Shown here in pieces: positions 6,704 to 35,445 of a stretch of DNA of 61,667 nucleotides (the stretch's first letter is position 1; each line of letters starts with the position of its first letter). The stretch is from a virus (taxonomy: Duplodnaviria > Caudoviricetes). The stretch is taken from the IMG/VR virus record IMGVR_UViG_3300020468_000006, positions 1 through 61,667 of that record; one strand, 5' to 3'. The position numbers were made by a program, and so were the translations under genes. The notes below the pieces were generated by a model. That model was not told the DNA's origin. It did no database searches and saw only the letters and a program-made list of their open reading frames with translations.

Positions 6704-6856
6704 ATGGCAGTTAGAACCAAAGAAGGCTCATGGGGAGCATCAATCTATGTTGAGAAGAATAGGAAGAAGACAAAACAAGGTAGTAGCATGAATACAAAGT
6801 ATTCTGCGACATCTCGCAACCATGCAAAGAAGAAATATAGAGGTCAGGGTAAGTAA
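6704..6856 (+). CDS. small basic conserved phage protein (KKYRGQG motif), 50 aa
   Basis: Not in the ORF track. It translates as MAVRTKEGSWGASIYVEKNRKKTKQGSSMNTKYSATSRNHAKKKYRGQGK*; I recall this type of ORF lying between PAAR and gp25 in marine T4-like phages. Confidence 0.75.
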   Translation: MAVRTKEGSWGASIYVEKNRKKTKQGSSMNTKYSATSRNHAKKKYRGQGK

Positions 6857-7131: not shown

Positions 7132-7148
7132 TTTTTCTGAAAACTCGT

Positions 7149-7155
7149 CTAAATA
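7149..7155 (+). promoter_or_regulatory. late promoter (CTAAATA) for gp25
   Basis: Intergenic TAAATA about 25 bp upstream of the gp25 start. Confidence 0.7.
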
Positions 7156-7179
7156 ACTATTGTTACAGTAAAAGCACTA

Positions 7180-18700: not shown

Positions 18701-21700
18701 AGTTTAAACTAGAATACTCATTTAACGTTATTGAGAGATCTGGAACACCTGGTCAATCATCTACAACTGAAACTCCTACAGTTAAGTTTACAGTTGGTGG
18801 TGAAGTAACTAATATCACATACTACTTCGATCCTAGTAGAACACTTTCTACCAATTCTCCAGTTGGTGCTAACTCCTTTATTGATGTTATCAAGACACCT
18901 TATGATGGTACATTTACTATCTCAAATGTTATTAGTGATACTGAGTTCAGATTCCCATTAGATCAAGAACCAGAATTTAATAGTGCTGAGATTGGTGAGG
19001 ATGATCAAGATAGACCTAACTCTTTCTATTCTACAACGTCTACTAAAGCAATTGGTCCTATCAATACTATTAAGTTGATATCAGCAGGTGGATTCTACAA
19101 AAAATTACCGATCGTTTCTGACATTGCTTCTAATCGTAAGATCGAAAGAATTGTTATTGCTAACGGTGGTACTGAATATGCACCTGGCGTATATACACAG
19201 GTTCCTATTATAGGTGATGGTGAAGGTGGTCTATTAAACATTACAGTAGAAATAGATCAAGAAACTGATTCTGGTACTATTACCCAAGTTGCTCTTATTG
19301 ATCCAGGTTCAGGTTATACTACAGGTTCTGTTGATGTAGATGCTATACCAGGAATTTTAGGACAGACTCTATCTGGTTCTGGTGCAGAACTAACTGTTGT
19401 TATACCTGCTGAAGGTACAGGTGCTTCTGTATTCTTAACTGGTACACAGATTGGTAAGATCAAAACTCTTAAGAACAATGAATTTGGTTATGGTTACTCT
19501 CATGACTATACTCTACGTCCTGAGATTGCATTCCCAGTTAACTTACAACTCTTTAACACCTCAATACTTTCACAGATCAAGATAACTAATCCAGGTGCTG
19601 GCTATACATCTTCTCCTGTAGTTGTTATCTCTGGTGGTGGTGGAACTGGTGCTGATGCAGAAGCAATTGTTAAGAACAACAGGCTATCTGAAATTATTGT
19701 TAAAGATCCAGGTTCGGGATACAGTTCAGAACCAACTGTTCTTCTAAAATCAGAATTTACATACGTTGTTAACTTAGACCTTAACTACTTACAGTTTAAC
19801 TTCCCACACGGTATTACAACTGGTGCTGAGGTACAGTTTAGGGCAGAAGATATTGGTACTACAGTCGGTGAACTACCAAAACCAAGTTCAGTTGGTTTGA
19901 CATCACTATCTTCCACTCAGACATACTACGCTATTGCAGGTGATGCAAACTCTCTAGAATCTGATCAGTTACGTTTTGCTTTGACACCTGCTGATTCAGC
20001 GTCTGGTAACTTTATTACATTCCTAACACAAGGTGAAGGTAGACAGGTTCTTCTTACTCAAGTATTTGGTGGTACTGCTAGTGCTGTTGTTGAGACTTCT
20101 AGATTCTTAGCATCTGAGCAAGTATTCCAAGGTGAGTCTTTCGAATTAGCAAATGCTTTCGGTACAGTTTCTACTAACGATGGATGGCAGATAGGTCCTA
20201 AGATTCTTAAGGTTGTTAATCCTACAGGTGACTTCGTTGCAGGTGGTAAGGTTCAGGGTGTTATATCTCGTGCATCTGGTATTATTGATAACGTACAGAT
20301 CGCTAAAGGTATTCTAAACATTGATGCTCTTACTAGAACATCTGGTAGATTTATTGATGACGTTGGTAAACCATCAGAGATTGTACAGAAGATTCAGGAC
20401 TCTTACTTCTATCAGAACTTCTCATATGTTATTAAGTCACAAATTCCAATTAACCGTTGGAAGAAGCAGGTATTAGAGAATAACCACCCTGCAGGATTTA
20501 ATATGTTTGGTCAGTTAGAACTGACTGGTGGTAAGGACGTTTCTGGACGTAAGATTGGTACTGAGTTTACTAAACAGGTTAATATTAATGAGTATACAAA
20601 TGTCAACCAGATTACATCATTTGGTGCTGCACAACCAATCTATTCTACATTTAACAACTCTGAAGTTCTATTCAGAAAGAAAAGACTAACAAACTCTGAG
20701 GAAATCTTAACATCTATCGTTAAGAAGTTAGATAATATCTCAAGTCAGTTTGATGGTTCTACTAAGGCATTTAACCTTACTGTAGAAGGTGATCAGGTTA
20801 TTATTAAAGAGAATCAGATGTTGGTCACCTTAAACGGTGTTATCCAGTCACCTGGTACTGCATATCAAATTGTTGGTAATCAAATCGTATTTGCTGAACC
20901 ACCAAGACCAGATTCTAAGGTTGTTTATAGAAACGTAGATATACAGATATTACAGATTACTAAACTGAATCTAAACACTATTGGTGGTATATTCCCATCT
21001 ATCGGTGATTTTGTTTCTGGATTCACTTCTAATGCTAGTGCTAGAGTTGTTGCTACAGGTGCAACCAGTATTGACGTTATTGACATCACTGGTGGTCCTT
21101 TCCAAAACAATGAACGTATTGATGTAAATAGAACTGGATTTAGTGCATTGATCGGTAGTTTTGCACCTATCAACCAAGATACAATCTTTGAGTTTGCAGA
21201 AACAGTTACTAAGGTTTCATTAACAGCAGAGACTGCTAAAATCGAAGAAACTAACTTAGATCTTGATGGTAACATTGATTCTTCATTAGTTCTATCTAAG
21301 ACATCTGGTACTGCTGAATTTGAGACTGGTGTTTATAATATTCTCTTAAATGACTTTATATACTCTTCAGCATCAAATATTGCTGCTAAGATTGTTAGCA
21401 TATCTCCATATAGAGATCCTATCAGTTCTATTCAGTTAACAAGTGGTGCTGCCTTCTTAGAAGGTGATCAGGTTACTGGTGGTAATTCAGGTGCTGTGGC
21501 AGAGGTTGTACGAGTAGATGATGCTTTAAATCCTCCTGTATTGTACTTTGTTGCTAAATCAGTTGCATCATTCGTTAGTGGTGAAACAATTACTGCAGGT
21601 GCTATTAATGATATTGTTGTTGGAGATATCACAAGAGGTGACGTTGTTGACACTCTTATCATTAACAAAGGTTCATCATTCTTTGGATTAGTATTTGAGA

Positions 21701-24700
21701 GACTTATATCTCTTTCTAACCAGAATATCATCCTTGATAACATTGCTCAGACCACAATTACCCCTACTACTCTAACAAATGCAGCAGACAGAATTAATGC
21801 TGATTTCTTAGATTATGAAGAAGTAAGATCTACTGAGATCGAATATAACAACTTATCTGGTGGTGCTCTTGCTAATGATGATGTTATGCGTTCTGTTAAC
21901 GTAACTTATGGTAATACTACAGATGACGCTCTTAACAGATATAAGGATGCTGCTAGAAGTATAAGGAACAATAAACAAGAAATTATTGATTATGCAACAT
22001 CACAGATTGCAATTGACTATCCTGACTTCTATTATACTGGTGAAGCAGAAACTGCACCTTGGGGTAGATTTAGAGATGGTTATCGTCTAATACAGAAAAA
22101 CAAAGCATGGATCGTTGCTAAAGCATATCAGGACATGGTAGTTCAGTATCCTGGTTCTACAATCCCTAGTGCTACAAAATGTAAGAGAGATATCGGATAT
22201 ATGATCGATGCTCTATCAAGAGATACAGGATGGGGTGGAACAGTATATACACGTAAATTTATCCAGAAATACTTCTCTGCTGATGGTTTAACATATCTCT
22301 ATGTTAATGCTCAATCTAACGAGACAGTTTATGCATATGAGCAAGCATATGGATATATGCAGAATGCTATCCAAAACGATCTAACTGGATCTGAAACTAT
22401 CGATGCTGTTGCATATACCAAGTATAACGAGAGAACTAGTGGTCCTAACAACAATAGTGGAATCACTGCTGACCCTAATCCTGGTGGAAACTATGGAACT
22501 ACAGGAACTAACACTACTAACAATGGTACTGACAATTGTGCAGATGTACAAGCAGCACTACAAACTCTCTTTAATAACGTCAAGGAAGTATTAAATGCAG
22601 GTTCATTAACAGATCTTATTGACCTATCATTACCTGATGCTAATTACACTGCTAAAGAAATTAAGTGTAATAGAGACACAGGATACTTTGTTGATGCTAT
22701 TGCAGATGACTTAGATGGTGATGGTAACTTTGCAATCGTAACATTTACTAAAAAATTCTTTGATGCAAGCGGTATACCAATCAACAATGGTCTTCCAGAA
22801 ACAGAAGAAGCAATAACTGCATTTAACGCTGCTAAAGATCTATGTAAGCGTGCAATGAGAAACCTATTGTATAGTCAGACATTGACTACAAAAGGTTATA
22901 ACCTCAACGATCCTACAACTTACTCTGCTCCATACTTAGATGGTGGCGGTGGTACTACTGCACATTACTATGATCCTAACTATGCATCAGGATCTAATCA
23001 ACTTGATACAAACTGTGCAAACGTAGCATCTGCTATTGATACATTATCTAACCTTGCTACAACTGCATTTACTGGTGCTCAGTTTACTGCGTCAGGTGCA
23101 ACATACAATGCAGCAACTGGTGTGATGGTATTGACTATCGGTACTCACAGTTTAACAACTGCAGACACTGTTAGAATCGATGCTAATTCATTGACATTCA
23201 CATGTCTAATGGATGGTAACACTGCTAATAAAACATATCCAAGATCAACTGACCCTGCATATGAAACTCAGCGAGCAATCACTGCAACTACAAATAATAC
23301 AATCACTATCAACGTTGGTACATCTCCTCTAGTAAACCATGATGTTACTGGTGCAAATTACAACGTAACTTCAGGTGATTTACAATTAACAATCGGTGCA
23401 CATAACTTAGAAGTTGGAACTAGCATCAAGATTGCTACTGAATCATTAACATTCCAGTGTGCATATAACGGTGGTGGTACTAGCGTATATCCTCGTGCTT
23501 CAGGTGCTAACACTTCTAGTGGTGCTGACTATGCATATGACACTGCACTACCAATTACATCCAAAACTGGAACAACAATCACAGTTAATGTTAACGGTGG
23601 ACAGGGTGCTATCTCTAACACTGATGCCCATACATTTGTATCTGCAACAGCAGGTGCTGTTGTTTCTGGTGGTAACTATGCACATACCTTTGTAAGTGGA
23701 GTTGCTAACTCTATCAAGGCAGGTGGTAACCTTGACAATATTAATGCATTATCAGTTATATCTGATGGTACATACAGAGAGAATGAGAACATTCGTGTTA
23801 ACAAGTATGCCTATAAGGATAGAGGTGGTTCTGGATTCTTCGTTCCTGGTGATACTATTACAGGTGCAAAATCTGGTGCAAGTTTCGAACTTAAGGGTGC
23901 TAACTCTGGACTAAAATGGTTGTATGCTCAAACTGTTTCTGGAATACTAGAAAATAGAGAGTATATTACTAACACCAAGATGGTTAATAATCTAGGTGGT
24001 AGTAATGTCAACATGACACCTAGCAGTGCAGCGTATGATCCTCTTACTGGTCAACTAACACTTACTAGTACTGCTCATGGTTATTCAGTAGGAAATAAAA
24101 TCTCTCTTGCTAACAACTGCTTGACATTCAGTTGCGATATGGACGGTGGTAATGCAAGTAAGACATATCCAAGAACAACTGATCCTGTAGGACAAGGACA
24201 ACAACTTGATATCATCAGAACAACTGCAGATACATTTACTGTTGTTGTTGGTTCATCACCTATAGTTGAGAAAAATATAACAGGTGCAAACTATGATCCT
24301 GTTCTAGGTGAGATGCAGATCAATGTTGAGGGTGGACACAATCTTAACGTTGGTGAGAGTATTAGATTAAAACCTAATTCATTAGTCTTTACTTGTGACA
24401 CTGATGGTAATGCTACTGAGCACTCTTATCCTAGGGCATCTGGAGCAGGTAACCCTTCAGGTGGTGCTGACCCTGCTTACAATACTGCTGTTGCAATCAC
24501 TGCAGTTGGATTTAATACTTACACAGTAACTGATGCAACATACACTCCTCTAGATGGATCATTAGTTCTTAGTATTGTTAATCATGGAATGCAAAGTGGC
24601 GACAAGATTAAGATCGTTGATGGATCAATAAGATTTACATGTGCTAAAGATAATAATGCAACTAATCATGATTATCCAAGAACATCTGACCCAATCTCAT

Positions 24701-27700
24701 ATCAGTGGTATGATATTACTGTACTAGATGACAATAACATCGGTGTTAATGTTGGAGTATCTTCTGACACATCTGTACATACATTCGTATCTGCAAATTC
24801 TAACGGAGTACAAAAACAAGATGGCACTATTTTTATTAACGTTCTCGGAGGCTCTGCTCCTGCATCTGATACTTCTCCACACACTTTCATAAGAGCTACA
24901 GAGGGTGCTTTGATGACTGGTGGTGGATACACCCATCAGTTCGTATCAGCAGTAACTAACGGTGTTACTGTTTATCCTGCTAGTGTAAGACTTACCAACA
25001 CTCAAAAGCGTGCAGGTACTAAGTCTCTAGCATTTGATTCTGGTGCATACTTATCTTATGGTCTATCAGATATACCTGCATGGGGTACATCAGACTTTAC
25101 TATTGAGTTCTGGATCAGACCTACCACAGCAATGAATAGTACAAAGTATCTTGTTGATCTTCGTACAAGTGGTGCTACTGAAACTAACTCATTTAGTCTA
25201 TACATTGATAGTGGTAATCTAAAATGGAAACTCAATCAAACTGATCAAATAAGTGGTGCTCATGGTATGAGTCCAAATGTTTGGTATCATATTGCATTAA
25301 CAAGAACAAGTCAGATATTAAAACTTTGGGTCAATGGTTCTCAGGTAGGTAGTGACTACACAGATGCTGCTACTTACTATGAACGTAAGATGACTATTGG
25401 TGCTGAGTGGAATGGTCAGAATAACTTTGTTGGATTCATGGATAACTTCGTTATCTACCCAACAACTTCTAAGTACACTGCAACATTTACACCTCCTACA
25501 GTATTCCCAACATCAACAACTGACATCTCATTCTCTATGGACAATGAGTTGCCATTGATTATGAGCAACCAAGAGGCATATGCAACTTATACAGGTACTA
25601 CTAACTCTGCTGCTCAAGCAACTAGTATTGATTATGTTAACCGTGAAGTTATTGTTGAGGAGATTGAGATATCAAGAGACACACAACGTGCTTGTGCTGA
25701 TATCTTAGAACTTAACAGAGCATGGATTGCTGAGACTGCTGTTAATAAGATGAAGGCGAAATATCCTGATCTATTGATGCCTGGTGATACTGCTGATGGT
25801 GTAGGTCCTCAACTTGGTACTAACTTCTGTTTGAGAGATACTAAAGAATTCATTCTTAAAGGTGTTATCGAAGATTTACGTTATGGTGGTAACTATAATA
25901 GTACACTTGCTGCTAGAAACTACTTAACTGCATACGAAGGTCTAGATTACATCGCTAATGAAGTATTGATGTCTATCTACACTTATAGACTTCTTGCTCC
26001 AATCTGTAATTATGTTCTTACCACAACAAGCACTGATCTTAAGACATACGATGGAACTAAGTATACAGAGATACTAAGAATTCCTAATAACTTCTCATCC
26101 CCTGCTGCTCAATCTATACAAGATGAGATTACAAAACTATGTGATGATATTGGAGATGTTATAGGACCAACAGGTCAAAGATATAGAGACGCAGGTGATC
26201 TTCTATGGTTAAACAGAGATGTGATTGCTGCTGAAACTGTTGGTTGGTTGGAAGCAACGTATCAAGCAAATATTAACGGTACGACTTATGACTTCTATCA
26301 GAATCCTAATGCAAATCCTAATAAGTGCAGTTACGAAATCAAGCAATACATTATTCCTGCTGTTATTGCTGACTTGGTTACAGGTGGAACTTCTGCTATG
26401 CAGTACAACGCAAGCAAGTTCCTCAACAATAATAACGAACTTTATTCGGTTGACAATGAACTAAGTGCTGTAATTGATGCTTACAAGTTTGTTAAAATGC
26501 TTTGCGAGAAAGCAGTTAACAACACACTACTAACAAATGGAGTAGCATCTGGTGGTTTAGGTATTCCTTCTGCTTATCAGGATGACTACTATACAATGCA
26601 GTACACAACTTTAACAGTCTATAGAGATCCTACAATCACTATTGACCCAGAAGGTTATGATCCATCTCGTACAGCAAATGACAGACTTCTAGATACTGCT
26701 GAACTTCTAGAGAAGAATGCTAATGTAATTGCTTGGGAAGCAGTTCACACAATGAACGATCTTTCTAAGTTCCTTAACTTTACAGTTCCTGGTGGTGCTC
26801 AAAACTGTGTAGATGACGTTGTAGATATTATTGGTGCTGTTGGACATGACTTAAGAAAGGGTGGAAACAGTAAGACATACGAAGCTGCTAAACTATACCT
26901 TGACTCTGAAACTAATAATCTTATCCAGTTAAATGGTCGTCAGCATACTCATCAATTTGTAAGAGCAGAATTAAATGCAATCCAATCAGGTGGTACTTAC
27001 AATCATACATTTGTAACTTCATCAACTAATGCTGTTACTGCAAATGGTGGTGCACAATTTACTCCATCAAATGTTGTCTATCAACCTGCAACTGGTAACT
27101 TAATTCTTACCATGCCTAGTCATGGATTGACAACTTCTAATACTATTACTATTGCAGAGAACGGATTCACCTTCACTTGTGGAATGGATCAAGATGAAAG
27201 CAATCATACTTACCCACGTAAAGGTGATCCTGCATATGGCAAATCCATTGCTATCACTGGATATACACTATCTACAATTACAGTTAATGTTGGTGCTTCA
27301 CCTCTCGTTAACTATAACGTTTCTCAAGCATCATACGATGCAACTAACGGTGAATTAATATTAAGTATTGGTGCTCACCAATTAGCAGTAGGTAAGAGTT
27401 TCAGATTTAAGCAAGAGTCATTAGTATTCACATGTGATAGAGATGACTATGCAACTGAGCATGCTTATCCAAGATCTACTGATCCTACTTTTGACACTGC
27501 TGTAGATATTAGTGCTGTAGGAACAACAGCACATACTGCTACAAGTGCTGCATACGACCCATCAACAGGTGTTATGACATTGACTCTTAATGGTCATAAC
27601 TTAGCAGGAGAAACAACACACACTGCAACTGATGCTGCATATAATCCTGAGACAGGTATCTTAACTCTAACTGTTGGCAACCACGGATTTGCTTCTGGGG

Positions 27701-30700
27701 ATAGTGTAAAACTTGCTGATAATTCAGTTACATTTACATGTACTTTAGATAGTAATGCTACAAACCATGCATATCCAAGATCAACTGACCCTGCATCAGG
27801 ATCATTCTTACCAATCCGTAACGTAACTCAGAATACATTTGATGTACAAATATTAGAAACAATCCCATCTACTAACGTAACTGCACATACATTCGTATCT
27901 GCAACTACTAATGGAATTACAAAAGCAAATGATTATGTTTGGATAGAAGAAGATGCAGTTGTATTTACATGTGGTCAAGATGGTAATGGATCAAACCATG
28001 CATATCCAAGACCTCAGGATCCTGCATACAAAGCGTGGTTACCTATAACAAGAATCGATGCTAATAATTTCTCTGTACAGACTTTATCAACTGCACCTTC
28101 CACAAACACAACTCCACACGTATTTGTATCCTTCGCAACTGATGGACTTAAGAAACAAACAGGTACGATTACTTGTAATGTAGGTGTTGCACCTGGCGAA
28201 GATGCTGCAGGTATTAGTGTAATTAAGATCGCAACTGAGATTGCTCAGTTAACAATGAGAAATGCATTTGGTCGTGAGAACCTTTACATTTACAATCCCG
28301 ATGCAGGAACTGGTGATGGTGATGGTATAACTGGTGGTGGTTCAGAATCTATTGATAATGTCGATGTATCATCTTATGAAAGAAATGCTGTTAAGGATAG
28401 ATTCATTAACGCTGCTGATGTAATCGATAGAAACATTAGAGTTATTGCTGAAGAAACTATTGCTGCTGCTAAAGCACAGTATCCTTCACTTCAGATTCCT
28501 GGTGGAAATATTAACTGTGTACATGACTTAACTGACTTCTTATATGCTATCCAGTGGAACTTACGTCACGGTGGTAATAACAAGGTCTTCCATGCTGCTG
28601 AATACTATGTTAACGAAGGTCTAACACATGCTACTGAAGCAACATGGATTATGAATTATGCTAGAGATCTAGCAATTCAGGTAATGAGAAATGAGTCTCT
28701 TGCTCTTAACTATGGTGCTGATCCTTCATATGATACTGCTATTGATATTGTTGATATTGCATCTACATCTCACACAGCAACCAATGCTGCTTATAATGCA
28801 TCAACAGGTCTTCTAACCTTAACTATCTCAGGTCATGGATTTGATGTAGGAAACAGAATTAACATTGCTGACAACTCATTGACATTGACTTGCTCAATGG
28901 ATAATCAGAGAAGTAATCATGTATATCCAAGATCTACTGACCCTGTTAGTGGACAATGGTTACCAATCATTTCTAAGACTAATGACACATTTGTTGTTAA
29001 CGTTGGTACATCTAGACTTATTAAGTTTACACCTACTCAGGTCATTTACGAACCTAACACTGGTAACTTAATCCTAACAATAGGACCACACAAGTTAACA
29101 ACAGGAACTAACATCAAGATATTAGGTAACTCATTAACATTCACTTGTACTCAAGATGCTAATGCTACTAACCACACATATCCTCGTACAACTGACCCAA
29201 TCTATGATGAACCAGTTGCTATTGTTGGTACTACTGCTAACACTGTAACAGTTAACGTTGGTACATCTGTAATTAAGAACTATGATATTCATGGTGCAAA
29301 CTTTAACCACACAACTGGTAACATCGTTCTTTCAGTTGGTCCTCATGACTTTAGAACTGGACAGAGTGTTAAGTTAGCAACTAGTTCTTTAGTGTTTAGA
29401 TGTGATGAAGATGCACAAGCAACTGATCACGTATATCCTCGTGCTTCAGCACCTAATGGTCCTGACCCTGCTTGGAATACAAGCATCAATATTGACGCTG
29501 TTGGATACACACAGCATACACCAACAAATGCAACTTATAATTCATCTACTGGTGTTGTACAATTAACTCTTGCTAATCATGGATTAACAGGACACACAAC
29601 TCATACTCCAACCAATGCAGTATTCACACCTGCTGATGGTAAGATGGTTGTTACTCTTGCCAATCATGGTTTTGCAAATAACGATAGAGTTAAACTTGCT
29701 ATTGGAGCGATAACATTTACTTGTGCTTTGGATAATAATGCAACCCTTCATCCATATCCTAGACAGTATGGATCTAATGCACCTGGTGGATCTGACTATG
29801 CATTCGATAAGTGGATACAAGTTACTAACGTAACTCAAGATACATTCGAAATCAACGTTGGTATTTCCTCTAACACTACAACTCATACATTTATATCTGC
29901 TCTTACTAATGGTCTAACACATGCAGGAGACATGGTTAAGGTTGCAGAAAATGCACTAACATTTACATGTACTAAAGATGGAAACTCTGCTAACAAATCA
30001 TATCCTAGAACATCTGACCCATCATACGATGAGTGGTTACCTGTTACTAAGATTGATAACAATACTATTAGTATCGTTGTAGGTGACTCTGGTCCTAATG
30101 ATCAATACACTCACTCATTTGTATCCTTCGCATCTAACGGACTTTGGAAGCAAGACGGAACAATAACATTAGATGTTAACGATGGATCTGGTGCTATATC
30201 TAACCAGACAAACCACGTATTCCAGTATGCAGTATCTGGAGCATTGATAACTGGTGGTAACTATACACATACATTTAAGTCTGCAACTGCAGGTGCTGTA
30301 CAAACTGGTGGTAACTACACTCATGAGTTTGTATCTGCAACAGCAAATGGAATTAAGAGACAAGATCCTGCAGGTAATGTAACATTACAAGTTGGAACAT
30401 CTGGTCCTAATGATCAATACACTCACGCATTTGTAAGTGCTAACTCTGGTGCTTTGATAACTGGTGGTAACTATCAACATAGATTTGTTACTGCAGAATC
30501 ACAAGCAGTGATAACTGGTGGTAATTATCTACACACATTTGTAAGTGCTGCAACTAACGCAGTTGCTGTTGGTGGATCTCCTACTAACTTAACTCCTAAT
30601 GGAGCAACTTATGATGGTGAAACTGGTAAGTTAGTTCTATCATTTGCTTCAGCACATAACTTAACTAATTCCAATACTATCACAATTGCTGATAATGGAT

Positions 30701-33700
30701 TAAACTTCTCATGTACATTTGATGGTAACTCAACAGTTCATGGATATCCAAGATCTACTGACTATGCATCTGGACAGGTATTACAAGTAACTGAATGGAC
30801 AACAAACACAATTACAGTTAACGTAACTACAACTCCGATCGTTAACTATGATGTTACTAATGCAACTTATGATGCAGGTACAGGACACTTAGTATTAGAT
30901 ATTGGATCTGTAGGTGTTGCTACACTTAAAGGACCAACAGCAGGATTGACTGCTACTGATGCTTCATACGATCCATCAACAGGTGTCATGACATTGACTG
31001 TTACAGGTCACAATATGGCAAATGGAGACAGAGTTAACATTGCTGATAATTCATTAACATTCACATGTACACAAGGTTCAGGTAACCACTCTTATCCAAG
31101 ATCATCTGACCCTGCAAGTGGAAACTGGTTAGATATCTCTAACGTAACTACAAACACATTTGATGTACAGGTTCTAGAAAATATTCCTTCTACTAACACT
31201 ACAACTCATACATTTGTATCTGCAGTAAATGGTGGAATTACTAAGGCAGGTGAGAACATTAGAGTTAGAACTGACTCCTTGACATTTACATGTTCACAGG
31301 ATGATTACGCTACAACTCACACATATCCTCGTGCTAAAGATCCTGCATTCGATCGTCCAGTACCTATCGTTGCTAAGTCTGGTTCTACAATCACAGTTGA
31401 TGTTGGACAGTCACCTATCGTTGCTTACACACCAACAAATGCTACCTATGATCCTGCAACTGGATTCTTAGTATTGACTATCGGTGCACACAGTCTAGTT
31501 AATGGAACTACTGCTAAGTTAGCACCTAACTCATTGACATTCACATGCTCAAGAGATGGCAACACTGCACAGAAGACATATCCTAGAAGTGGACATAAGT
31601 TTAAGCAATCATTCTATAATGATCTAGATTACTACCCATACAATAAGGGTGATTATGTTATCACTGCTGATACTGAGAGTCCTCTATGTGCTGACGTAGC
31701 ATCTGCTATCACAACAATGATGGCAATCGTTACTGATTCTATTGCAACTCCTGCATCTCTAACAGATGGTACAATCACTAAGACTCTACCAACAATCTGG
31801 CCAGTTAAGTATGCACCTGAAATGGTAGAACGTGATGTTAGCATTACATACTATGCTGATGCAGGTGATAATTGGAACCAGACATGCCCTAACTCTGCTG
31901 CAGCGATAGAATCATTAATGAACATCGTTGTTGATACTATCAAGTTAGCGAAAGATGGTGGTGGTAGTCATCTAGATGCTATTGAGAAAGTAGAACCATG
32001 GACATTTAACAGACAGTATCAGACATGGACATGTTATAACGTTAAATCTTCTATCCATACATTATTCGATGTATTGATGAAGACATTATCAGGTGGATCT
32101 AAATCTGATCTTAAGTCTGCACGTCATATACTCTTTAATAAGCATGCGATAACTGCTAGAGCATATGAGAGAACAACTAACCAATATCCTGGTACTGCTG
32201 CAACACTTCAGTTTGCTGATGATATGGTTCATTCATTATTGTATGACCTTAACACAGGTGGTAACCAAGGTATGCTTAAGTTGGTTAACTCATGGTTCGA
32301 TGGTGAGGGTAACTTTATTGCATTCCAAGATGTTGTTAGACAGCACTTACTCTTCTACACAACACGTATTCGTGAATATGTAAAACGTGCATTATATGAT
32401 CAGAACAATACTACTCAGTGGGATGGTTATGATATCTACAAGGATACAACCAACACTGCTGCTATTGATGCTAGATTTGAGTATGAGTGGGAAAGTACAG
32501 AGTTTAGAATTGACAGTTCACTAAACCTTGCATACCATGGTCTAAACAGATCTGCACCTCCATCAAATAACCAAGTTACATTCATCAATAGTACTGATGC
32601 TACTAACTTACAGAATCTATATGATGAAGGTGAAGATTATAATACTGATCCAGAACTAGTTCTATTGACACCAACTATCGAAGTTGGATTCGAAAGAAGA
32701 GAAAGTGTTGTGAGAATTACACGTCCTAACTTCTTCTCTCGTGGTGACATCGTTGCTTATATCCCTGCCTCTGGTCAAATAGAACCTGCATTACAAGATC
32801 AAGATTACTACTATGTTCTAAACGCTACTGCAGAATGGTTTGAGATTGCTCGTGAGATTCGTCATGATGCAAGATACAGACTCTTCGAAGTTGATAGAAA
32901 TCTAACAGGTCAGCAAAGAGTACAAACAGTCGTACGTCAAGGTATTATCGTACCGACTGCAACATACGCAATGCGTGATTTGGATCAACCAATTAGTGCA
33001 GGATTTAACACTGCTGACATTCTTATTGGTGCAACATCTAATGCAACATCTGAGGTTATTAGAATACGTAATAACGAAGCAGATATCATTAAACTATACT
33101 ACAAGTATAACATCGATGCTGCTACAGGTAGATTCACAAATGGTGAAACAATACAGCAACAAGGTGCTACATCTAACAATGCTGTAGTTGTTCAGACTTC
33201 TGTATTGACTGGTGATGGAACTGACGAAGGTTGGATTTATGTAGAATCATTAAATGGTGCGTTATCAGATAACGCTGTTATGGAGGGAGTAACTTCAGGA
33301 CTAACTGCATCTATAAACGGAACACCAACAACTCGTATGTTGATCAACCTTAATAGAGGTCAGTTTGCTGCAGGTGAGAAAGTCTTTAATAAATCAAATG
33401 CTGCTACAGCAGATATAGTTTCCTACGAGAACTCAGCAGGTGCATTGGTAGGTAATACTGGTGGACGTATAACAATCGATATCGAAACTATACAGGAAGA
33501 CTTTACTGACGGTGATATAATCTATGGTTCTATTACTGATACAATCTTAGACATTGCTAATATCACTGCAGGTGGATTCGAAGCACTAGAACTTAATCAG
33601 TATGTACATGCTGTATCAACAATAGAATTAGACATCTCTAGTGTTGTTCGTGATGGTGGTTACAATGGTGACTTTAGTGCAGGTGACACAGTTTACTTAC

Positions 33701-35445
33701 TACAAGGTACAATTATTAAGGAACCTGGTTTCACTGCTGTTGTTACTCAGTACCAAGCACCTGACCCTGCTGCTAACCCTCCAGTTCCACATAAGATGTG
33801 GATTGCAAACTTACTACCATATGGTACAGATTCAGATGGCAACCAAGTTACACCTGATGCTGCAGCACAACTTGTAGGACAAGGTACAGCACTTGGTAAG
33901 TTTGAGAACCTCAACAACTTCCCAATAATTCTTGCTGAAGCAAGTGGTGCTACTGAAACTAATGTAGAAGGTTATGGTAAAGTTTCTGGACTATATCAGA
34001 GTGGTGTTACAGGTAGAATTTGGTTAGAAGATGTTGTTGGAACATTCCCAACTAACTTAACAATCATTTCTGATAATGACTGGTCTGCAGGTGTAACACA
34101 ATCTAAAGAACTTCTTGGAAGATGTAACAGATTCTTCAGAGGATTTGATGGTACACAAACTACATTTAAACTTACTATTAATAATGGTGAAGCATACTTC
34201 CCAGATCCTGCAGGACACCTACTAACATTCGTTAATGGTATCTTACAACCACCTGGTGCAAACTTCGCATACACAGCGTTCTCTGATCAGATTCAGTTTA
34301 CTGAAGCACCTACAATCGGATCTGAGTTTATTGGATACTATGTTGGTAAGTTACGTCAGTTAGATGACATATCATTCGAGTTTGACTCCTTACGTTCATC
34401 CTTTAACTTACGTTACGCAGGTGGATTCTACTCACTAACACTAACTGAAGGTGTTAGTAGCTCTACTATACTTCCTGAAAACAATATTGTTGTTTCCCTG
34501 AATGGTGTTATTCAGGAACCAGGCGTAGGTTACGAACTAGTTGGTTCTAGAATAATCTTTGCTGAAGTTCCTCGTGCAGGATCTACATTCGTAGCATTCT
34601 CATACATTGGTTCTGACGCTGACGTTATCGCTGCTACTATCGTACCTCCTGTAGAAGCAGGTGACCTCTTACAAATCGAGGGTGAGAATGACGATCGTGA
34701 AGTTGCGTTGATCGAATCTTCTAACTCCTTAATTACTTTCGAGTACACAGGAACTGTTAAGGGACGTAACGCTGAAGCACTTTCAGCAATCACAACAGGT
34801 GAAATTAAGACAGCAATCATTACATCACCTGGTGACGGATATACCTCACGTCCAAACGTTGACGTTATTTCATCTTCTGGATTCGATGGACGTGTACGTG
34901 CGTTGATGGGTCTTCTAAGAGTTGATGTTAAGACTGCAGGTGTTGGATACTCTAGTCCTGTGGTTACTGTTGAGAATGTAGTTGAGGATGATTGGGTTGC
35001 ACCTGTAGGTCCTGCTGTTAACCAAGGTTTTGATACCTACGCAGGTGAAGGAACTGACAGTGAAGGTAACCCAATTGTAATTGTTCCAGGATTCATCAGA
35101 ATCACAACTCAACCAGTTAACGTAACAGTTAACCAAGGTCAGACTGCAGGATTTACTGTTATCAGTGAGTTTGTTAAAGCATCTGATGGACTAGTAGGAA
35201 CTACACCTCTTAACTATCAGTGGCAACGTAAGCAGTATGGTGAAACTAACTGGGCTAACATAACTGGTGCTACTGCTGCTCTCTATAGTTCTGCAAGTGC
35301 TGAACAGGCAGATGACGGTGATGAGTTCCGTGTTGCTATAACTGCTGCAGGTGCTTCACCAATTTACTCTAACTCTGTGATCCTCACAGTACAGACTGGT
35401 GCAACGATAGTCTCTAACTTTGTACCTACTCAATTGTTCCAATAA
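9703..35445 (+). CDS. gp7: giant baseplate wedge initiator gp7-like multidomain protein (8580 aa)
   Basis: Follows gp6. It has the N-terminal QLPDFI...FVSFLFEYYKSQE, IKDFYASKGT...LFKILFGEE and KIQDSYFYQNFSYVIKS...HPAGF motifs of cyanophage gp7. Accessory modules visible by eye: GxGY repeats, a YHYH-like domain, a beta-propeller-like region, two LamG domains, two CBM-like modules, helical repeats, nested beta repeats and a C-terminal Ig domain. Confidence 0.85.
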   Translation: MQTISSVNISDRVEGQLPDFIKQEDEQFVSFLFEYYKSQEKTGRPYDLLNNILTYLDIDAYDQKVLASSTELIKDVDTANSLIEVESIDGFMDRDGSVMIDNEVIYYEETVRGPDAILTPGLSLEEFNKKRQELESPFLDFDGVTTTFPLKFLGTPVSPVSAEHLAVIVYNQSMIPNVDYTISGTNITYTVAPRARIGTDIVGSTRILYYIGFADSVIKELVFPAPAGLAGQDSMTLGYDNLAYSPISEIGLIINRNGLLLSPYIDYVLTDNNTQIKYFVNIAPNDIFHIRSIEYVSPSVGTGAKAVTRVGLNGEIEAIQVKDGGKQYELNFAPKVSITSSTGTGRGSAARTLVAGIKNIQLINGGQGYTAYNPPKVLITPPTDQVNGSGAKASITVDDTTGQVSSIQITNSGSGYDFIPAISFVNPSGAIITDPTIDSEGRLNAGTITITDGGIGYSNPPTIYIDAAPTDGVDAVAECTVSPDGEIVAVTITNRGRGYTSAPRARVVQPIGAQVLDVTVANGSVTNVNLLTGGKGYTDAPSVYIVDDRKGPLGESIGGTGAEAAATIFNGEITDINIISFGTGYSTTEPPRVYIAEPLSAQSSCDVGFGEVTGFTILSSGREYQPSSLKGCARGVSEIVEFDKFGNQIYAKESQLRQSNHTTGAIVHNLDAKIITQVFDKFRRQYMPTINIDYTQVNPIQVIKTIKDFYASKGTKTAAQYLFKILFGEEVDIFYPRDELIKPSDASWVVDTILRAELISGDPANLSNAQLVQNADEVDQNIKDATVLIENVISIIEGTDVIYELAISEETLTGTFKIPYKTSLVEPLSTTGNIITVDSTIGWPEKNGTIIINDQETVQYKDKSLNQFIECTRSKNGVVEDWDPGTLVYSDIFVYVNQGLANEVKLRVLGIAEAGTTVLEDSGSYYLPGDKLNVAALGSTDIDERLQSWLYNVKKLISVTSITPGGINNQTATVVCSNAHGLLVEDQVTIYGANPAVYNGTFEVTSRLNDFTFSYNIPTPMDIVPQGNILLSVDLNRGKSQTSTINEVVSLFTSNIQNAFFNQDYVYVAASGLPNYKIGPFQGSAIIPGNQRKLLRFPRTVETISTRTAIGANNPIGAWVNGVSAWSYKSSEFVTFGPLTAINITNSGIDYDAGSKPALEITGGGGTGAAATVTVNGSLSNVEVLTEGTGYTSQPLISIVGGGGQGATAQAVVTNGRVTRILVENAGTGYTSQPTISITGGNGAGATATASVRGVISAVTLSSTGSGYTSTPTIKLNSGEGALAQPIVINGRIVSIAIINSGSAYTSAPTVYINGDGFGATATAVIGTLGEDKGKVISVSITNRGVGYTQGMTAVRMEAVGQLATFTADVFQWNKNVEYQLDPDPANPTATNADGSLKKRYDIARGYVFTGFNNQYGGEYAHVSDPKELRYVIGDNVFLNPETNRFQEVPSNIDHSPIIGWAFDGNPIYGPYAYIDPTDQNSGIRRMRSSYKIKTELIFDEDTNPTPARIDGPLLANYPAGYFVNDYTYTFQQGDLDQYNGRFCKTPDYPAGTYAYFITIDESDAGLPVFPYIIGSSFNSVVDTWNLSLNAVQENIPQDVARFRDPYVNVDIDIDRQPNQESDSFVTEKEGDLLIFEIEDIDGDAIISPAEIATLQAITEEAALQIYDYFPRVSAESRVDIEVDTTTKFESAQIDGFVVENAGVSYQVNDTLFFDNTGTDGFGASAIIESVQGRTISAYTKEIINDVPHGKITTATAHDLIAQDQIIVNSKVITDNTNKRYYTSVVTGIETITVTQTGIGYNTQIPPTYEIITTTGQDVAFNIVLDETTGKVGNVNIVNSGFGYDTANPPQIRVSHPQQYKKTYYWLSEYYEDTDKINIIDSKVATDRHIYICGELTQVNGDTSAFLAKFTDLGVLVWDRTLISVTTNKKARWKSMYLDQTSAENHLIYIIGETESQTTATYNPDILVAKYESGYDNANAPEGIVRWQKEIAGVSGSARRDYAGDIHLDDEQRVYICGWTDTNSPDPNDIWVMQLNNLGDVVEKRKFASDAEGEEMTQLYFIGNNKLLFTGIDSDNQDIIFGEMSYDGANIELTYTKRLAVSGGNVQRPRFVLDEWDDLFFICDMFNGTKNYGIAFFKIPLDQLSTNPSTPTYTYSKIIAPSGTFESINHAGINMDVFGNVSIVADLKYADNDRQAVVMNFKYDGTLLKSTNIADTNDIGMITRTHQVDNSGDVILTSNKQLPVQTYVARFENENDLDEDSTKQALVTTTFSTPANAAHNTSEYKFGAGSVKFSGGPTNMKAAGAGLTGKWTTEVWSLLTASHASNNPKVEMFTIDDATGNSLIVTVDGNASSGNLGKIEMTIAPQGGGGSTTASVGSTYWTTLQDAAWHHWAVVKDEPTLGSYSYSVYFDGIQVCTATVTTNIGLNDLYVGANKTTPATANCFLGSIDDLVIDPNTVYTGASFTVATERYRITSNDSKVNLIKFDRQHDKRGAYTAFSETTHTKALSFTETTAINVNTLSNPVITTWNVGASGLQILDYSDVSSQLTPGTYSFTSAIHQYASKTSTIPSPLGRKVKVTAVPMAKFYIRDAGYQKIDLVKEFTFNQAVKFTKGTLIQQKNEQGIIQAYGTIVEVPTGTLDNPGLGNKYKVGKIYGNFNNDTTDLYQNDTGEENTIDGVVFEQPRLQDQWVASKAYTTDTQVYNAGKIYKATNTATSGSTPPTHNIGIVTDGSVTWQYISAAGAIQVDLSEHPWPTPTETLWTANRSFSVNDLVYFARQKYKCTVAGVTSSVAPTHTTGTATDGTVTWEWQSTYDPLSSYARFRTYDPGDYAVKILEVYPESDFIVGDVISLGGSVTAGPNTDNPKIADINGVTTVKKLELTVRLDKDIVRTAETRTDLIYCSALIAHRFTAGDILFVTGFQGTQFDGSFFVEEIFSSRDYTYRMRANAVSDPTFDNNAIANVKISSKHPTLLLVRNHSYIFDLSDASNQGYFLSFSQDNQFKLEYSFNVIERSGTPGQSSTTETPTVKFTVGGEVTNITYYFDPSRTLSTNSPVGANSFIDVIKTPYDGTFTISNVISDTEFRFPLDQEPEFNSAEIGEDDQDRPNSFYSTTSTKAIGPINTIKLISAGGFYKKLPIVSDIASNRKIERIVIANGGTEYAPGVYTQVPIIGDGEGGLLNITVEIDQETDSGTITQVALIDPGSGYTTGSVDVDAIPGILGQTLSGSGAELTVVIPAEGTGASVFLTGTQIGKIKTLKNNEFGYGYSHDYTLRPEIAFPVNLQLFNTSILSQIKITNPGAGYTSSPVVVISGGGGTGADAEAIVKNNRLSEIIVKDPGSGYSSEPTVLLKSEFTYVVNLDLNYLQFNFPHGITTGAEVQFRAEDIGTTVGELPKPSSVGLTSLSSTQTYYAIAGDANSLESDQLRFALTPADSASGNFITFLTQGEGRQVLLTQVFGGTASAVVETSRFLASEQVFQGESFELANAFGTVSTNDGWQIGPKILKVVNPTGDFVAGGKVQGVISRASGIIDNVQIAKGILNIDALTRTSGRFIDDVGKPSEIVQKIQDSYFYQNFSYVIKSQIPINRWKKQVLENNHPAGFNMFGQLELTGGKDVSGRKIGTEFTKQVNINEYTNVNQITSFGAAQPIYSTFNNSEVLFRKKRLTNSEEILTSIVKKLDNISSQFDGSTKAFNLTVEGDQVIIKENQMLVTLNGVIQSPGTAYQIVGNQIVFAEPPRPDSKVVYRNVDIQILQITKLNLNTIGGIFPSIGDFVSGFTSNASARVVATGATSIDVIDITGGPFQNNERIDVNRTGFSALIGSFAPINQDTIFEFAETVTKVSLTAETAKIEETNLDLDGNIDSSLVLSKTSGTAEFETGVYNILLNDFIYSSASNIAAKIVSISPYRDPISSIQLTSGAAFLEGDQVTGGNSGAVAEVVRVDDALNPPVLYFVAKSVASFVSGETITAGAINDIVVGDITRGDVVDTLIINKGSSFFGLVFERLISLSNQNIILDNIAQTTITPTTLTNAADRINADFLDYEEVRSTEIEYNNLSGGALANDDVMRSVNVTYGNTTDDALNRYKDAARSIRNNKQEIIDYATSQIAIDYPDFYYTGEAETAPWGRFRDGYRLIQKNKAWIVAKAYQDMVVQYPGSTIPSATKCKRDIGYMIDALSRDTGWGGTVYTRKFIQKYFSADGLTYLYVNAQSNETVYAYEQAYGYMQNAIQNDLTGSETIDAVAYTKYNERTSGPNNNSGITADPNPGGNYGTTGTNTTNNGTDNCADVQAALQTLFNNVKEVLNAGSLTDLIDLSLPDANYTAKEIKCNRDTGYFVDAIADDLDGDGNFAIVTFTKKFFDASGIPINNGLPETEEAITAFNAAKDLCKRAMRNLLYSQTLTTKGYNLNDPTTYSAPYLDGGGGTTAHYYDPNYASGSNQLDTNCANVASAIDTLSNLATTAFTGAQFTASGATYNAATGVMVLTIGTHSLTTADTVRIDANSLTFTCLMDGNTANKTYPRSTDPAYETQRAITATTNNTITINVGTSPLVNHDVTGANYNVTSGDLQLTIGAHNLEVGTSIKIATESLTFQCAYNGGGTSVYPRASGANTSSGADYAYDTALPITSKTGTTITVNVNGGQGAISNTDAHTFVSATAGAVVSGGNYAHTFVSGVANSIKAGGNLDNINALSVISDGTYRENENIRVNKYAYKDRGGSGFFVPGDTITGAKSGASFELKGANSGLKWLYAQTVSGILENREYITNTKMVNNLGGSNVNMTPSSAAYDPLTGQLTLTSTAHGYSVGNKISLANNCLTFSCDMDGGNASKTYPRTTDPVGQGQQLDIIRTTADTFTVVVGSSPIVEKNITGANYDPVLGEMQINVEGGHNLNVGESIRLKPNSLVFTCDTDGNATEHSYPRASGAGNPSGGADPAYNTAVAITAVGFNTYTVTDATYTPLDGSLVLSIVNHGMQSGDKIKIVDGSIRFTCAKDNNATNHDYPRTSDPISYQWYDITVLDDNNIGVNVGVSSDTSVHTFVSANSNGVQKQDGTIFINVLGGSAPASDTSPHTFIRATEGALMTGGGYTHQFVSAVTNGVTVYPASVRLTNTQKRAGTKSLAFDSGAYLSYGLSDIPAWGTSDFTIEFWIRPTTAMNSTKYLVDLRTSGATETNSFSLYIDSGNLKWKLNQTDQISGAHGMSPNVWYHIALTRTSQILKLWVNGSQVGSDYTDAATYYERKMTIGAEWNGQNNFVGFMDNFVIYPTTSKYTATFTPPTVFPTSTTDISFSMDNELPLIMSNQEAYATYTGTTNSAAQATSIDYVNREVIVEEIEISRDTQRACADILELNRAWIAETAVNKMKAKYPDLLMPGDTADGVGPQLGTNFCLRDTKEFILKGVIEDLRYGGNYNSTLAARNYLTAYEGLDYIANEVLMSIYTYRLLAPICNYVLTTTSTDLKTYDGTKYTEILRIPNNFSSPAAQSIQDEITKLCDDIGDVIGPTGQRYRDAGDLLWLNRDVIAAETVGWLEATYQANINGTTYDFYQNPNANPNKCSYEIKQYIIPAVIADLVTGGTSAMQYNASKFLNNNNELYSVDNELSAVIDAYKFVKMLCEKAVNNTLLTNGVASGGLGIPSAYQDDYYTMQYTTLTVYRDPTITIDPEGYDPSRTANDRLLDTAELLEKNANVIAWEAVHTMNDLSKFLNFTVPGGAQNCVDDVVDIIGAVGHDLRKGGNSKTYEAAKLYLDSETNNLIQLNGRQHTHQFVRAELNAIQSGGTYNHTFVTSSTNAVTANGGAQFTPSNVVYQPATGNLILTMPSHGLTTSNTITIAENGFTFTCGMDQDESNHTYPRKGDPAYGKSIAITGYTLSTITVNVGASPLVNYNVSQASYDATNGELILSIGAHQLAVGKSFRFKQESLVFTCDRDDYATEHAYPRSTDPTFDTAVDISAVGTTAHTATSAAYDPSTGVMTLTLNGHNLAGETTHTATDAAYNPETGILTLTVGNHGFASGDSVKLADNSVTFTCTLDSNATNHAYPRSTDPASGSFLPIRNVTQNTFDVQILETIPSTNVTAHTFVSATTNGITKANDYVWIEEDAVVFTCGQDGNGSNHAYPRPQDPAYKAWLPITRIDANNFSVQTLSTAPSTNTTPHVFVSFATDGLKKQTGTITCNVGVAPGEDAAGISVIKIATEIAQLTMRNAFGRENLYIYNPDAGTGDGDGITGGGSESIDNVDVSSYERNAVKDRFINAADVIDRNIRVIAEETIAAAKAQYPSLQIPGGNINCVHDLTDFLYAIQWNLRHGGNNKVFHAAEYYVNEGLTHATEATWIMNYARDLAIQVMRNESLALNYGADPSYDTAIDIVDIASTSHTATNAAYNASTGLLTLTISGHGFDVGNRINIADNSLTLTCSMDNQRSNHVYPRSTDPVSGQWLPIISKTNDTFVVNVGTSRLIKFTPTQVIYEPNTGNLILTIGPHKLTTGTNIKILGNSLTFTCTQDANATNHTYPRTTDPIYDEPVAIVGTTANTVTVNVGTSVIKNYDIHGANFNHTTGNIVLSVGPHDFRTGQSVKLATSSLVFRCDEDAQATDHVYPRASAPNGPDPAWNTSINIDAVGYTQHTPTNATYNSSTGVVQLTLANHGLTGHTTHTPTNAVFTPADGKMVVTLANHGFANNDRVKLAIGAITFTCALDNNATLHPYPRQYGSNAPGGSDYAFDKWIQVTNVTQDTFEINVGISSNTTTHTFISALTNGLTHAGDMVKVAENALTFTCTKDGNSANKSYPRTSDPSYDEWLPVTKIDNNTISIVVGDSGPNDQYTHSFVSFASNGLWKQDGTITLDVNDGSGAISNQTNHVFQYAVSGALITGGNYTHTFKSATAGAVQTGGNYTHEFVSATANGIKRQDPAGNVTLQVGTSGPNDQYTHAFVSANSGALITGGNYQHRFVTAESQAVITGGNYLHTFVSAATNAVAVGGSPTNLTPNGATYDGETGKLVLSFASAHNLTNSNTITIADNGLNFSCTFDGNSTVHGYPRSTDYASGQVLQVTEWTTNTITVNVTTTPIVNYDVTNATYDAGTGHLVLDIGSVGVATLKGPTAGLTATDASYDPSTGVMTLTVTGHNMANGDRVNIADNSLTFTCTQGSGNHSYPRSSDPASGNWLDISNVTTNTFDVQVLENIPSTNTTTHTFVSAVNGGITKAGENIRVRTDSLTFTCSQDDYATTHTYPRAKDPAFDRPVPIVAKSGSTITVDVGQSPIVAYTPTNATYDPATGFLVLTIGAHSLVNGTTAKLAPNSLTFTCSRDGNTAQKTYPRSGHKFKQSFYNDLDYYPYNKGDYVITADTESPLCADVASAITTMMAIVTDSIATPASLTDGTITKTLPTIWPVKYAPEMVERDVSITYYADAGDNWNQTCPNSAAAIESLMNIVVDTIKLAKDGGGSHLDAIEKVEPWTFNRQYQTWTCYNVKSSIHTLFDVLMKTLSGGSKSDLKSARHILFNKHAITARAYERTTNQYPGTAATLQFADDMVHSLLYDLNTGGNQGMLKLVNSWFDGEGNFIAFQDVVRQHLLFYTTRIREYVKRALYDQNNTTQWDGYDIYKDTTNTAAIDARFEYEWESTEFRIDSSLNLAYHGLNRSAPPSNNQVTFINSTDATNLQNLYDEGEDYNTDPELVLLTPTIEVGFERRESVVRITRPNFFSRGDIVAYIPASGQIEPALQDQDYYYVLNATAEWFEIAREIRHDARYRLFEVDRNLTGQQRVQTVVRQGIIVPTATYAMRDLDQPISAGFNTADILIGATSNATSEVIRIRNNEADIIKLYYKYNIDAATGRFTNGETIQQQGATSNNAVVVQTSVLTGDGTDEGWIYVESLNGALSDNAVMEGVTSGLTASINGTPTTRMLINLNRGQFAAGEKVFNKSNAATADIVSYENSAGALVGNTGGRITIDIETIQEDFTDGDIIYGSITDTILDIANITAGGFEALELNQYVHAVSTIELDISSVVRDGGYNGDFSAGDTVYLLQGTIIKEPGFTAVVTQYQAPDPAANPPVPHKMWIANLLPYGTDSDGNQVTPDAAAQLVGQGTALGKFENLNNFPIILAEASGATETNVEGYGKVSGLYQSGVTGRIWLEDVVGTFPTNLTIISDNDWSAGVTQSKELLGRCNRFFRGFDGTQTTFKLTINNGEAYFPDPAGHLLTFVNGILQPPGANFAYTAFSDQIQFTEAPTIGSEFIGYYVGKLRQLDDISFEFDSLRSSFNLRYAGGFYSLTLTEGVSSSTILPENNIVVSLNGVIQEPGVGYELVGSRIIFAEVPRAGSTFVAFSYIGSDADVIAATIVPPVEAGDLLQIEGENDDREVALIESSNSLITFEYTGTVKGRNAEALSAITTGEIKTAIITSPGDGYTSRPNVDVISSSGFDGRVRALMGLLRVDVKTAGVGYSSPVVTVENVVEDDWVAPVGPAVNQGFDTYAGEGTDSEGNPIVIVPGFIRITTQPVNVTVNQGQTAGFTVISEFVKASDGLVGTTPLNYQWQRKQYGETNWANITGATAALYSSASAEQADDGDEFRVAITAAGASPIYSNSVILTVQTGATIVSNFVPTQLFQ
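21937..32400 (+). repeat. about 7 helical phycobiliprotein-like repeats within gp7
   Basis: Recurrent pattern R..DA...I..N...I...A......YP....PG...C.RD......A...DL..GG, with a closing helix C..V..AI..L. Confidence 0.6.
23080..31593 (+). repeat. 18 nested ~100-aa beta-module repeats in four clusters within gp7
   Basis: Each module reads A.Y...TG...L....H......I....L.F.C..D.....H.YPR..DP...I...T..V.VG...H.FVSA. The clusters are at 23080-23727 (2 modules), 24004-24978 (3), 26941-28197 (4) and 28711-31593 (9). Confidence 0.9.

Follow-up and report, generated by a model that had tools for sequence, protein, structure and literature searches.

Self-recursive domain insertion is known mainly from the SI3 region of RNA polymerase. 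In the available part of its text, a 2026 survey of domain insertion across 2.7 million domains highlights SI3 of Prochlorococcus RpoC2, with eight domains at six levels, as the deepest case (PMC13114784). The same part describes SI3 of the cyanobacterial RNA polymerase β′ subunit (RpoC2) as recursively nested sandwich-barrel hybrid motifs (SBHMs) of the form A1-B1-C-B2-A2, with bifurcating nodes (PMC13114784). We analyzed 61,667 nucleotides (nt) of viral DNA (Duplodnaviria; Caudoviricetes), positions 1 to 61,667 of IMG/VR record IMGVR_UViG_3300020468_000006 and hereafter the window, in which a giant open reading frame (ORF) at the gp7 position of the baseplate genes carries 18 copies of one beta module. 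These copies are very likely inserted recursively into each other at four loops to form single-chain trees, so that self-recursive insertion would here be found in an unrelated fold and in a virion protein.

Module anatomy and cluster layouts

The module is all-beta, about 95 residues long, and its 18 copies lie at residues 4460-7297 of the giant protein, so that the whole module region falls within one ORF. An opening hairpin with an H-x-L loop is followed by strands b and c, the latter with an invariant Cys, by a YPR-x-x-DP loop, by strands d and e, and by a closing strand of the type H-x-F-V-S, here called the closer. An uninterrupted example (residues 5977-6076) has an H-x-L/F hairpin loop, a strand c with …F-T-C and an (H)-x-Y-P-R-x-x-D-P loop. 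YPR occurs 19 times in the protein, and the 18 occurrences at residues 4512-7293 all have [FL]-x-C 11-13 residues before them; the nineteenth, at residue 735, was rejected as unrelated to the module cores. Searched by regular expression in the whole frame of 8581 residues, the closer (H.F[VIQK][STYR]) has 18 matches, all at residues 4643-7169, and the opening hairpin also has 18, all within the module region, with neither motif present in the remaining ~5700 residues.

A preliminary description of this DNA, made from its letters, had reported that YPR cores and closing strands balance in four clusters, that the modules are inserted into one another rather than placed in tandem, and that three insertion points recur. 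Our regular-expression counts agree on the balance: 2/2 (residues 4460-4675), 3/3 (4768-5092), 4/4 (5747-6165) and 9/9 (6337-7297). All three insertion points are real, and there is a fourth. The chain can leave a module after the H-x-L loop, directly after YPR, in the turn between strands d and e (after I-x-A-V-G), or between strand e and the closer (after V-G-x-S-P). The additional site, directly after YPR, is an exit used by cluster 4 and by an insert in orthologues, and it is an ordinary insertion site in relatives. Core-to-hairpin distances peak three times, at 8-15, 24-35 and 36-43 residues; tallies of sites by distance were discarded, the cut-offs being wrong and one type of module having a longer loop.

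Module layouts, read by eye from the sequence, are given in Table 1, where brackets enclose what a module hosts. Cluster 3 opens with two closers ahead of any core (His at residues 5750 and 5768) and ends in a helical domain. Cluster 4 starts with the back half of a module and ends with a front half that stops at YPR 7293-7295, again with a helical domain next. Following the closers of M3, M2 and M1, it contains strand e and the closer of M9, two further closers, and then M6[M7[M8], M9 front half]. The closers with His 6926 and His 6944 precede the cores they must serve, and the closer of M1 is 477 residues (1.43 kb) away from the Cys of M1. Clusters 3 and 4 are therefore balanced in number, not in order, and parse only as circular permutations. 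We propose that closers stand ahead of cores in these two clusters because the chain enters via a loop of the root module and not via its ends. The two closers at the head of cluster 3 could in principle serve another cluster, but this was ruled out, since every cluster is self-balanced in all orthologues.

Tandem Repeats Finder (TRF) reports a single repeat within the module architecture, two copies of 54 nt at 30455-30563. Ordinary repeat finders therefore miss the architecture, as the preliminary description had expected.

By eye, the clusters sit on repeats of a helical domain of ~150 residues (window ~25678-26937, 28198-28707 and 31594-32600) with the signature …Y-P…C-x-x-D…D-L-x-x-G-G-N…, plus short C-A-[DN]-V…A-I helices; cluster 3 breaks into one of these domains.

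Table 1. Positions in the window of the module clusters, their parts and other features.
Feature	Position	Strand	Description
Cluster 1	23080..23727	+	M1[M2]; M2 between strand e and closer of M1; token string ABABFF, parses unrotated
Cluster 2	24004..24978	+	M1[M2[M3]]; M3 in I-x-A-V-G turn of M2; layout of cluster 1 plus M3
Cluster 3	26941..28197	+	Four modules, circularly permuted: closer(b), closer(a), Ma, Mb[Md[Mc]], strand e of Mb
Cluster 4	28711..31593	+	Nine modules, rotated; split root-side M9 hosts M1[M2[M3[M4[M5]]]]
M3 strand e and closer, then M2 and M1 closers	30127..30372	+	His at residues 6838, 6856, 6874; 82-residue partner of the split-chain test
M9 strand e and closer (His 6908), then closers His 6926 and 6944 for M7 and M6	30367..30567	+	Assigned by grammar only
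Module M7	30862..31437	+	Read as the window's single fork: M8 in H-x-L loop, M9 after strand e
Giant ORF	9703..35445	+	8580 residues (frame of 8581); gp7 position, baseplate wedge / virion structural protein
Laminin_G_3 (concanavalin A-like) domain	25063..25464	+	Just past cluster 2, outside the nest; Pfam E 1.4e-18, 67.9 bits
YHYH domain	13945-14385		In giant protein, residues 1415-1561; Pfam
gp6-like wedge subunit	7594-9699		Upstream neighbour; phrog_219
Wedge subunit	7180-7593		Upstream; phrog_261
PAAR-motif protein	6157-6687		176 residues, upstream of wedge genes; phrog_281

Tests of the nesting

We turned the sequences of 71 viral loci, 79 metagenome loci and cyanophage P-RSM6 into strings of tokens, using hidden Markov models (HMMs) for the hairpin (A) and the closer (F) and the pattern Cys…YP[RK] for the core (B). 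The HMMs gave 1986 A and 1814 F matches versus 1-2 on reversed sequences, a rate that, with the absence of the motifs from the rest of the giant protein, excludes chance. In our stack parser, A pushes a module, B advances the top module only, and F closes the top module only once the core of that module is in place; the tokens are unlabelled, and the parser is blind to nested versus crossed pairing of closers. It was run on the 165 clusters uncut by locus ends, from 150 reading frames. All 92 clusters balanced by automatic tokens parse as nests with rotation (42 without). Among unique balanced strings of at least two modules, 18/18 parse with rotation and 13/18 without, compared to 2.9% and 0.36%, respectively, of shuffled strings (n = 3600). 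With a simpler and less sensitive tokeniser based on position-specific scoring matrices, 73 of 163 clusters came out balanced, and every one of these parsed, against 4.8% of shuffles.

In the window, parse depths reach 3, 4 and 8 (values of the token parse, not of structures), and the string of cluster 4 parses only with rotation, at depth 8 and with one fork. The preliminary description had predicted a balanced-parenthesis order in which the module opened last is closed first. This order holds after rotation, but as written the strings of clusters 3 and 4 break it with their closers first. The linkers carry a separate signature: the prefix GG-x-Y is missing from 600 of 604 non-redundant closers that lie at most 50 residues after their own core, and is present in 344 of 395 that lie at most 24 residues after another closer. 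The innermost module therefore keeps a short link from strand e to its closer while later closers have a distinct return linker, and distinct return linkers are what a last-opened, first-closed order predicts.

Structure prediction for each cluster had been suggested as a check. For cluster 3, we ran AlphaFold2 on window 26905-28257 (451 residues); the 48 rows of the input alignment came from orthologues and from collinear paralogous segments, and were checked against HMMER ranges. The model is confident, with a mean predicted local distance difference test score (pLDDT) of 86.0, a predicted template modelling score (pTM) of 0.76, and values below 50 only at residues 1-12 and 431-451. Both leading closers are predicted as strands (residues 16-21 and 34-39; block pLDDT 73-92), and superposition with an independent BFVD model, made for a fragment from an orthologue, gives a template modelling score (TM) of 0.74 over 449 columns.

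For the M1-M5 part of cluster 4, we split the chain in silico. Chain 1 comprised residues 6354-6808 (window 28762-30126; the cores of M1, M2 and M3 plus the whole of M4[M5]), and the partner residues 6809-6890, the strand e and three closers listed in Table 1. The partner docks on chain 1 with an interaction prediction score from aligned errors (ipSAE) of 0.74, versus 0.00 for the best of three controls. In benchmarking, 58 of 80 solved complexes and 2 of 110 mismatched pairs attained this mark, which is a rough calibration only, as own alignments were used. Between runs, at least 94% of contacts recur; each run has 418-426 confident contacts (418 in the best run) and a partner pLDDT of at least 74. 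M1, M2 and M3 contribute alike to the confident interface on chain 1, each with its hairpin, its strand b and its strand c, the Cys included (Cys 6397, 6482 and 6567). Predicted error is lowest for pairs between partner residues 6-15, a stretch that contains strand e of M3, and the hairpin and strand d/linker of M3 (chain-1 residues 189-197 and 244-253); a single such pair reaches M4, at residue 393. Because no similar solved structure was found, memory of a known complex is an unlikely source of this result. The model supports binding, rather than showing it, of the closers to three cores up to 1.4 kb upstream, in agreement with the earlier claim that some closers complete modules begun more than 1 kb away.

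The layout of cluster 3 is the same in 11/11 aligned orthologues, and P-RSM6 has the window's exact token strings in clusters 3 and 4. By automatic detection, P-RSM6 clusters 1-2 have one closer fewer, a pattern that in locus L015 is a missed H-x-Y closer. Cluster 4 takes a nine-module form in the window, P-RSM6 and loci L013, L015, L020-22 and L085-88, and a 14-module form in L016-18, L023, L089, L090 and L134 (L091 ends early). What separates the two forms is a single insert of ~530 residues after M4, with five cores and five closers, which we read by eye as N1[N2[N3[N4[N5]]]]; it occupies the M3 loop that also holds M4, as a sibling of that module. The expectation that orthologue indels correspond to whole balanced sub-trees is borne out by this one large indel.

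The preliminary description had also pictured a chain forking at several loops. In the window the trees are nearly linear, with a single fork, in cluster 4, where one host has two children; in our reading of the sequence this host would be M7. Of the 20 parseable topologies, however, 12 have at least one fork, and the largest trees, found in relatives, are single-rooted, with 17 modules, a depth of 6-8 and 4-6 forks. The term "branched tree" is therefore true topologically and mostly in relatives, its geometry being a proposal.

Weighing of alternative readings

The observation in the preliminary description is confirmed and its interpretation partly supported. Insertion of modules into one another, and not in tandem, is indicated alike by the grammar, by the cluster 3 model and by the docking of the closers, and the nesting is well supported in clusters 1-3 and in the M1-M5 part of cluster 4. 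Several points weigh against this reading. By automatic tokens, 73 of the 165 clusters are unbalanced; the four unbalanced patterns that were inspected (20 of the 73 clusters) all came from token misses in degenerate copies, in which the closer read H-x-Y or H-x-L, or the hairpin had His in place of Tyr. The cluster 3 model gives confidence and predicted strands, not strand partners. For cluster 4, the AlphaFold2 run (996 residues) used 16 orthologue rows, a composite alignment having been dropped with 48 of its 60 rows misplaced by MAFFT, and reached a pLDDT of 62.1 and a pTM of 0.34, with values below 50 at the closer run (residues 503-581) and at both half-module ends. Of the suggested per-cluster models, that of cluster 3 was confident and that of cluster 4 of low confidence. 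In the split-chain test, the two chains are consecutive pieces of one polypeptide, a case that tends to pass, and the test gives no closer-to-core list; that M2 closes before M1 is argued from linker logic. Finally, the closers with His 6908, 6926 and 6944 are assigned to M9, M7 and M6 by the grammar, and their block has a pLDDT of 37-83 in the cluster 4 model.

A linear arrangement would account for part of this. The modules could be degenerate tandem beads on a string, some without their last strand, with the runs of GG-N-Y-x-H-x-F-V-S-A forming a ribbon or solenoid of their own; the 18-residue period of the closers, the 54-nt repeat found by TRF and the failure of AlphaFold2 to place the closer run of cluster 4 confidently would all suit it. 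We nevertheless consider it extremely improbable, given that hairpins, cores and closers balance at exactly 18/18/18 and balance again in every parsed relative, that the orthologue insert adds exactly five closers along with its five cores, and that a pTM of 0.76 for cluster 3 is unusual for flexible beads. In the split test, moreover, the closer run contacts the hairpin and strands b and c of three separate cores, not itself. A swap between molecules is directed at the other anomaly, the closers that lie ahead of cores in clusters 3 and 4. Wedge proteins are present in several copies per baseplate in T4, so the leading closers might complete modules of a neighbouring copy and tie the wedges together, and both half-module ends of cluster 4 are left unplaced by AlphaFold2. 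This too is very unlikely: the monomer model of cluster 3 is confident with both leading closers included, each rotated cluster is self-balanced in all orthologues, and the linker from closer to next hairpin is short.

On the nested reading, the chain would exit a host module at one of the four loops, build one or more whole child modules and return to finish the host, with this exit and return recurring to a depth of 6-8. Each cluster would be a rooted tree made by one out-and-back excursion of the chain, and clusters 3 and 4, entered through a loop of the root module, would for that reason be circularly permuted. Across 70 diverse uninterrupted modules, His19, Cys38, YPR, Asp54 and His87 are invariant, an invariance that for Cys and YPR was partly built in by the selection of modules and so counts for less in favor of the reading. 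Because of these residues and of the closer-to-strand-c contacts in the split-chain model, we infer that the invariant His of the loop, Cys of strand c, Asp and His of the closer may form a clasp, by metal or hydrogen bonds, that locks the closer in place.

The trees may be rigid projections from helical hub domains at the periphery of the baseplate, serving host-surface contact or spacing and diversifying by the grafting and pruning of sub-trees. The full form of this proposal, a self-similar protein tree of depth 8 and 17 modules with clasp-locked closers, whose rigid branched appendages are reshaped by grafting, pruning and rotating sub-trees, is one we put forward tentatively, at somewhat less than even odds. 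If true, it would be a combinatorial, topology-level route to host-range variation, deeper than the six-level SI3 case highlighted. Alternatively, the nest may be real and its modules passive, acting as rigid spacers or scaffold while host recognition resides in the Laminin_G_3 or YHYH domains or in separate fibre genes. That the module matches no known binding family, that its invariant residues (Cys, His, YPR, Asp) are of buried or structural type and that a lectin-like domain follows cluster 2 all fit such a role. On the other hand, module number and tree shape vary widely among phages, as for host-range determinants, over the 20 topologies, although tuning of length would also be compatible with this variation. 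We regard the passive role as a serious possibility, on balance doubtful.

Distribution, genomic setting and comparison with known systems

Searches for known relatives of the module were negative. Pfam and NCBIfam gave no family above cut-off for the module, and none common to modules, in the whole region or in five single modules scanned against Pfam at E up to 10. The PDB, searched by sequence and by profile, gave nothing significant for the module, and Foldseek found nothing similar to the cluster 3 model in the PDB (best TM 0.14), with no RNA polymerase chain among the listed matches. PDB matches to MinD (E 0.068) and iota-carbonic anhydrase (E 5e-4, three weak stretches) were judged to be chance, and an ESM Atlas lead to E1_FCCH (0.91) was not reproduced in the Pfam single-module scans. 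In full-text literature, covering main texts without supplements and including the available part of Sullivan et al. 2010 (PMC3037559), we found no account of this architecture in cyanophage gp7.

The module region is matched by 325 phage records, all of marine cyanophages or marine viruses, and has no nested counterpart among the non-cyanophage records of the phage collection. Prokaryote genomes, one per species and scanned with 12 more closely related modules, yielded only 12 loci, mostly on marine contigs from metagenome-assembled genomes (MAGs) or single-amplified genomes (SAGs), which are of phage-like size or doubtfully binned. Some contigs with the module are filed as non-cyanobacterial or archaeal, namely L170 (a Nonlabens xiamenensis isolate, 188 kb), L164/L168 and L174 (archaeal MAGs), and others are L165 and L173 (a Prochlorococcus SAG and a Synechococcus MAG), contigs of 189-194 kb, the size of a cyanomyovirus genome, in cyanobacterial assemblies. 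These module contigs probably represent phage DNA that was binned with cells or assembled together with them. Two viral contigs (L067 and L082) encode stand-alone proteins of ~650 residues with four nested modules and, at the end, a conserved C-terminal tail, so that the module tree is not confined to giant gp7 genes.

The window DNA is 78.2% identical in nucleotides, over 10 kb, to cyanophage P-RSM6, whose host is Prochlorococcus NATL2A and which shares the window's order of baseplate genes around the giant ORF. Its orthologue, CPXG_00128 (YP_007675165.1; 8573 residues), is annotated only as "virion structural protein" without a domain description. In the more distant relatives from P-HM1, P-HM2 and P-SSM4 the annotation is gp7, baseplate wedge initiator. 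Pfam Baseplate_wedge (PF23786) matches the giant protein at residues 696-740 with 29.7 bits against a cut-off of 27, over just positions 177-221 of the 284 in the profile, and PHROG matches include phrog_701 and phrog_2885 ("baseplate wedge subunit", E = 0). Downstream of the ORF are a structural protein, a wedge-fibre connector (phrog_677) and a further wedge subunit (phrog_438). Because of these baseplate neighbours, the Pfam and PHROG matches and the relatives annotated gp7, we assign the giant ORF as the gp7-position baseplate wedge protein of a T4-like cyanomyovirus. Module-bearing cyanophage proteins in BFVD are variously named baseplate wedge initiator, tail protein, long tail fiber, Gp14 neck protein, endosialidase or LamG-like, and annotation of these genes appears unreliable. 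The Laminin_G_3 and YHYH domains of the giant protein are candidate binding domains. Beyond the wedge genes lie two further huge ORFs at 41993-49360 and 49885-57276 (2455 and 2463 residues), matching phrog_358 (function not annotated) and phrog_697 (structural protein), respectively.

Nested modules span hundreds of abundant ocean phage genomes, with additional insertion sites, forks and circular permutation, and their nesting accounts for the difficulty that domain annotation and repeat finders have with these giant genes. The parse rule could annotate such genes automatically, and the results suggest sub-tree gain and loss as the way in which Prochlorococcus and Synechococcus phages vary their baseplate appendages. 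With closers up to ~480 residues away from their cores, these proteins are also a demanding test case for protein folding.

Three described systems bear comparison with this locus, besides phrog_1276 (function not annotated), which has 16 matching stretches in the module region (E 3.5e-166) and is a sequence cluster only, without fold, function or architecture. The fibre tip of T4 gp37 is a trimeric needle with repeated, iron-binding H-x-H motifs; the closers here read H-x-F in 17/18 copies, the exception being the first closer of cluster 3. T4 gp7 is likened to the giant protein by its gene position beside gp6-like and other wedge genes and by the Baseplate_wedge match, so that both a wedge gene block next to gp6 and a wedge-subunit profile match are found here. 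It differs in length, being about one-eighth as long, and the nested module region sets the giant protein apart from it. Among recursive nested insertions, host modules here are interrupted by complete domains and yet complete their fold, as indicated by the grammar, the cluster 3 model and the docking of closers, and inserts host further inserts over several levels in the token parse, as distinct from structures. The closest analogue is SI3, in which, to judge from the available part of its description, one small beta domain family is likewise both host and insert, recursively. Unlike SI3, which lies in an enzyme, the cyanophage modules lie in a virion protein, and their fold and sequence are unrelated to it (best Foldseek TM 0.14), placing them outside the SBHM domains. 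The cyanophage nest further differs in having four insertion sites per module and circularly permuted whole clusters and, relative to SI3 as portrayed in that part of the survey, in a token-parse depth of up to 8 and, in relatives, as many as 17 modules in one rooted tree.

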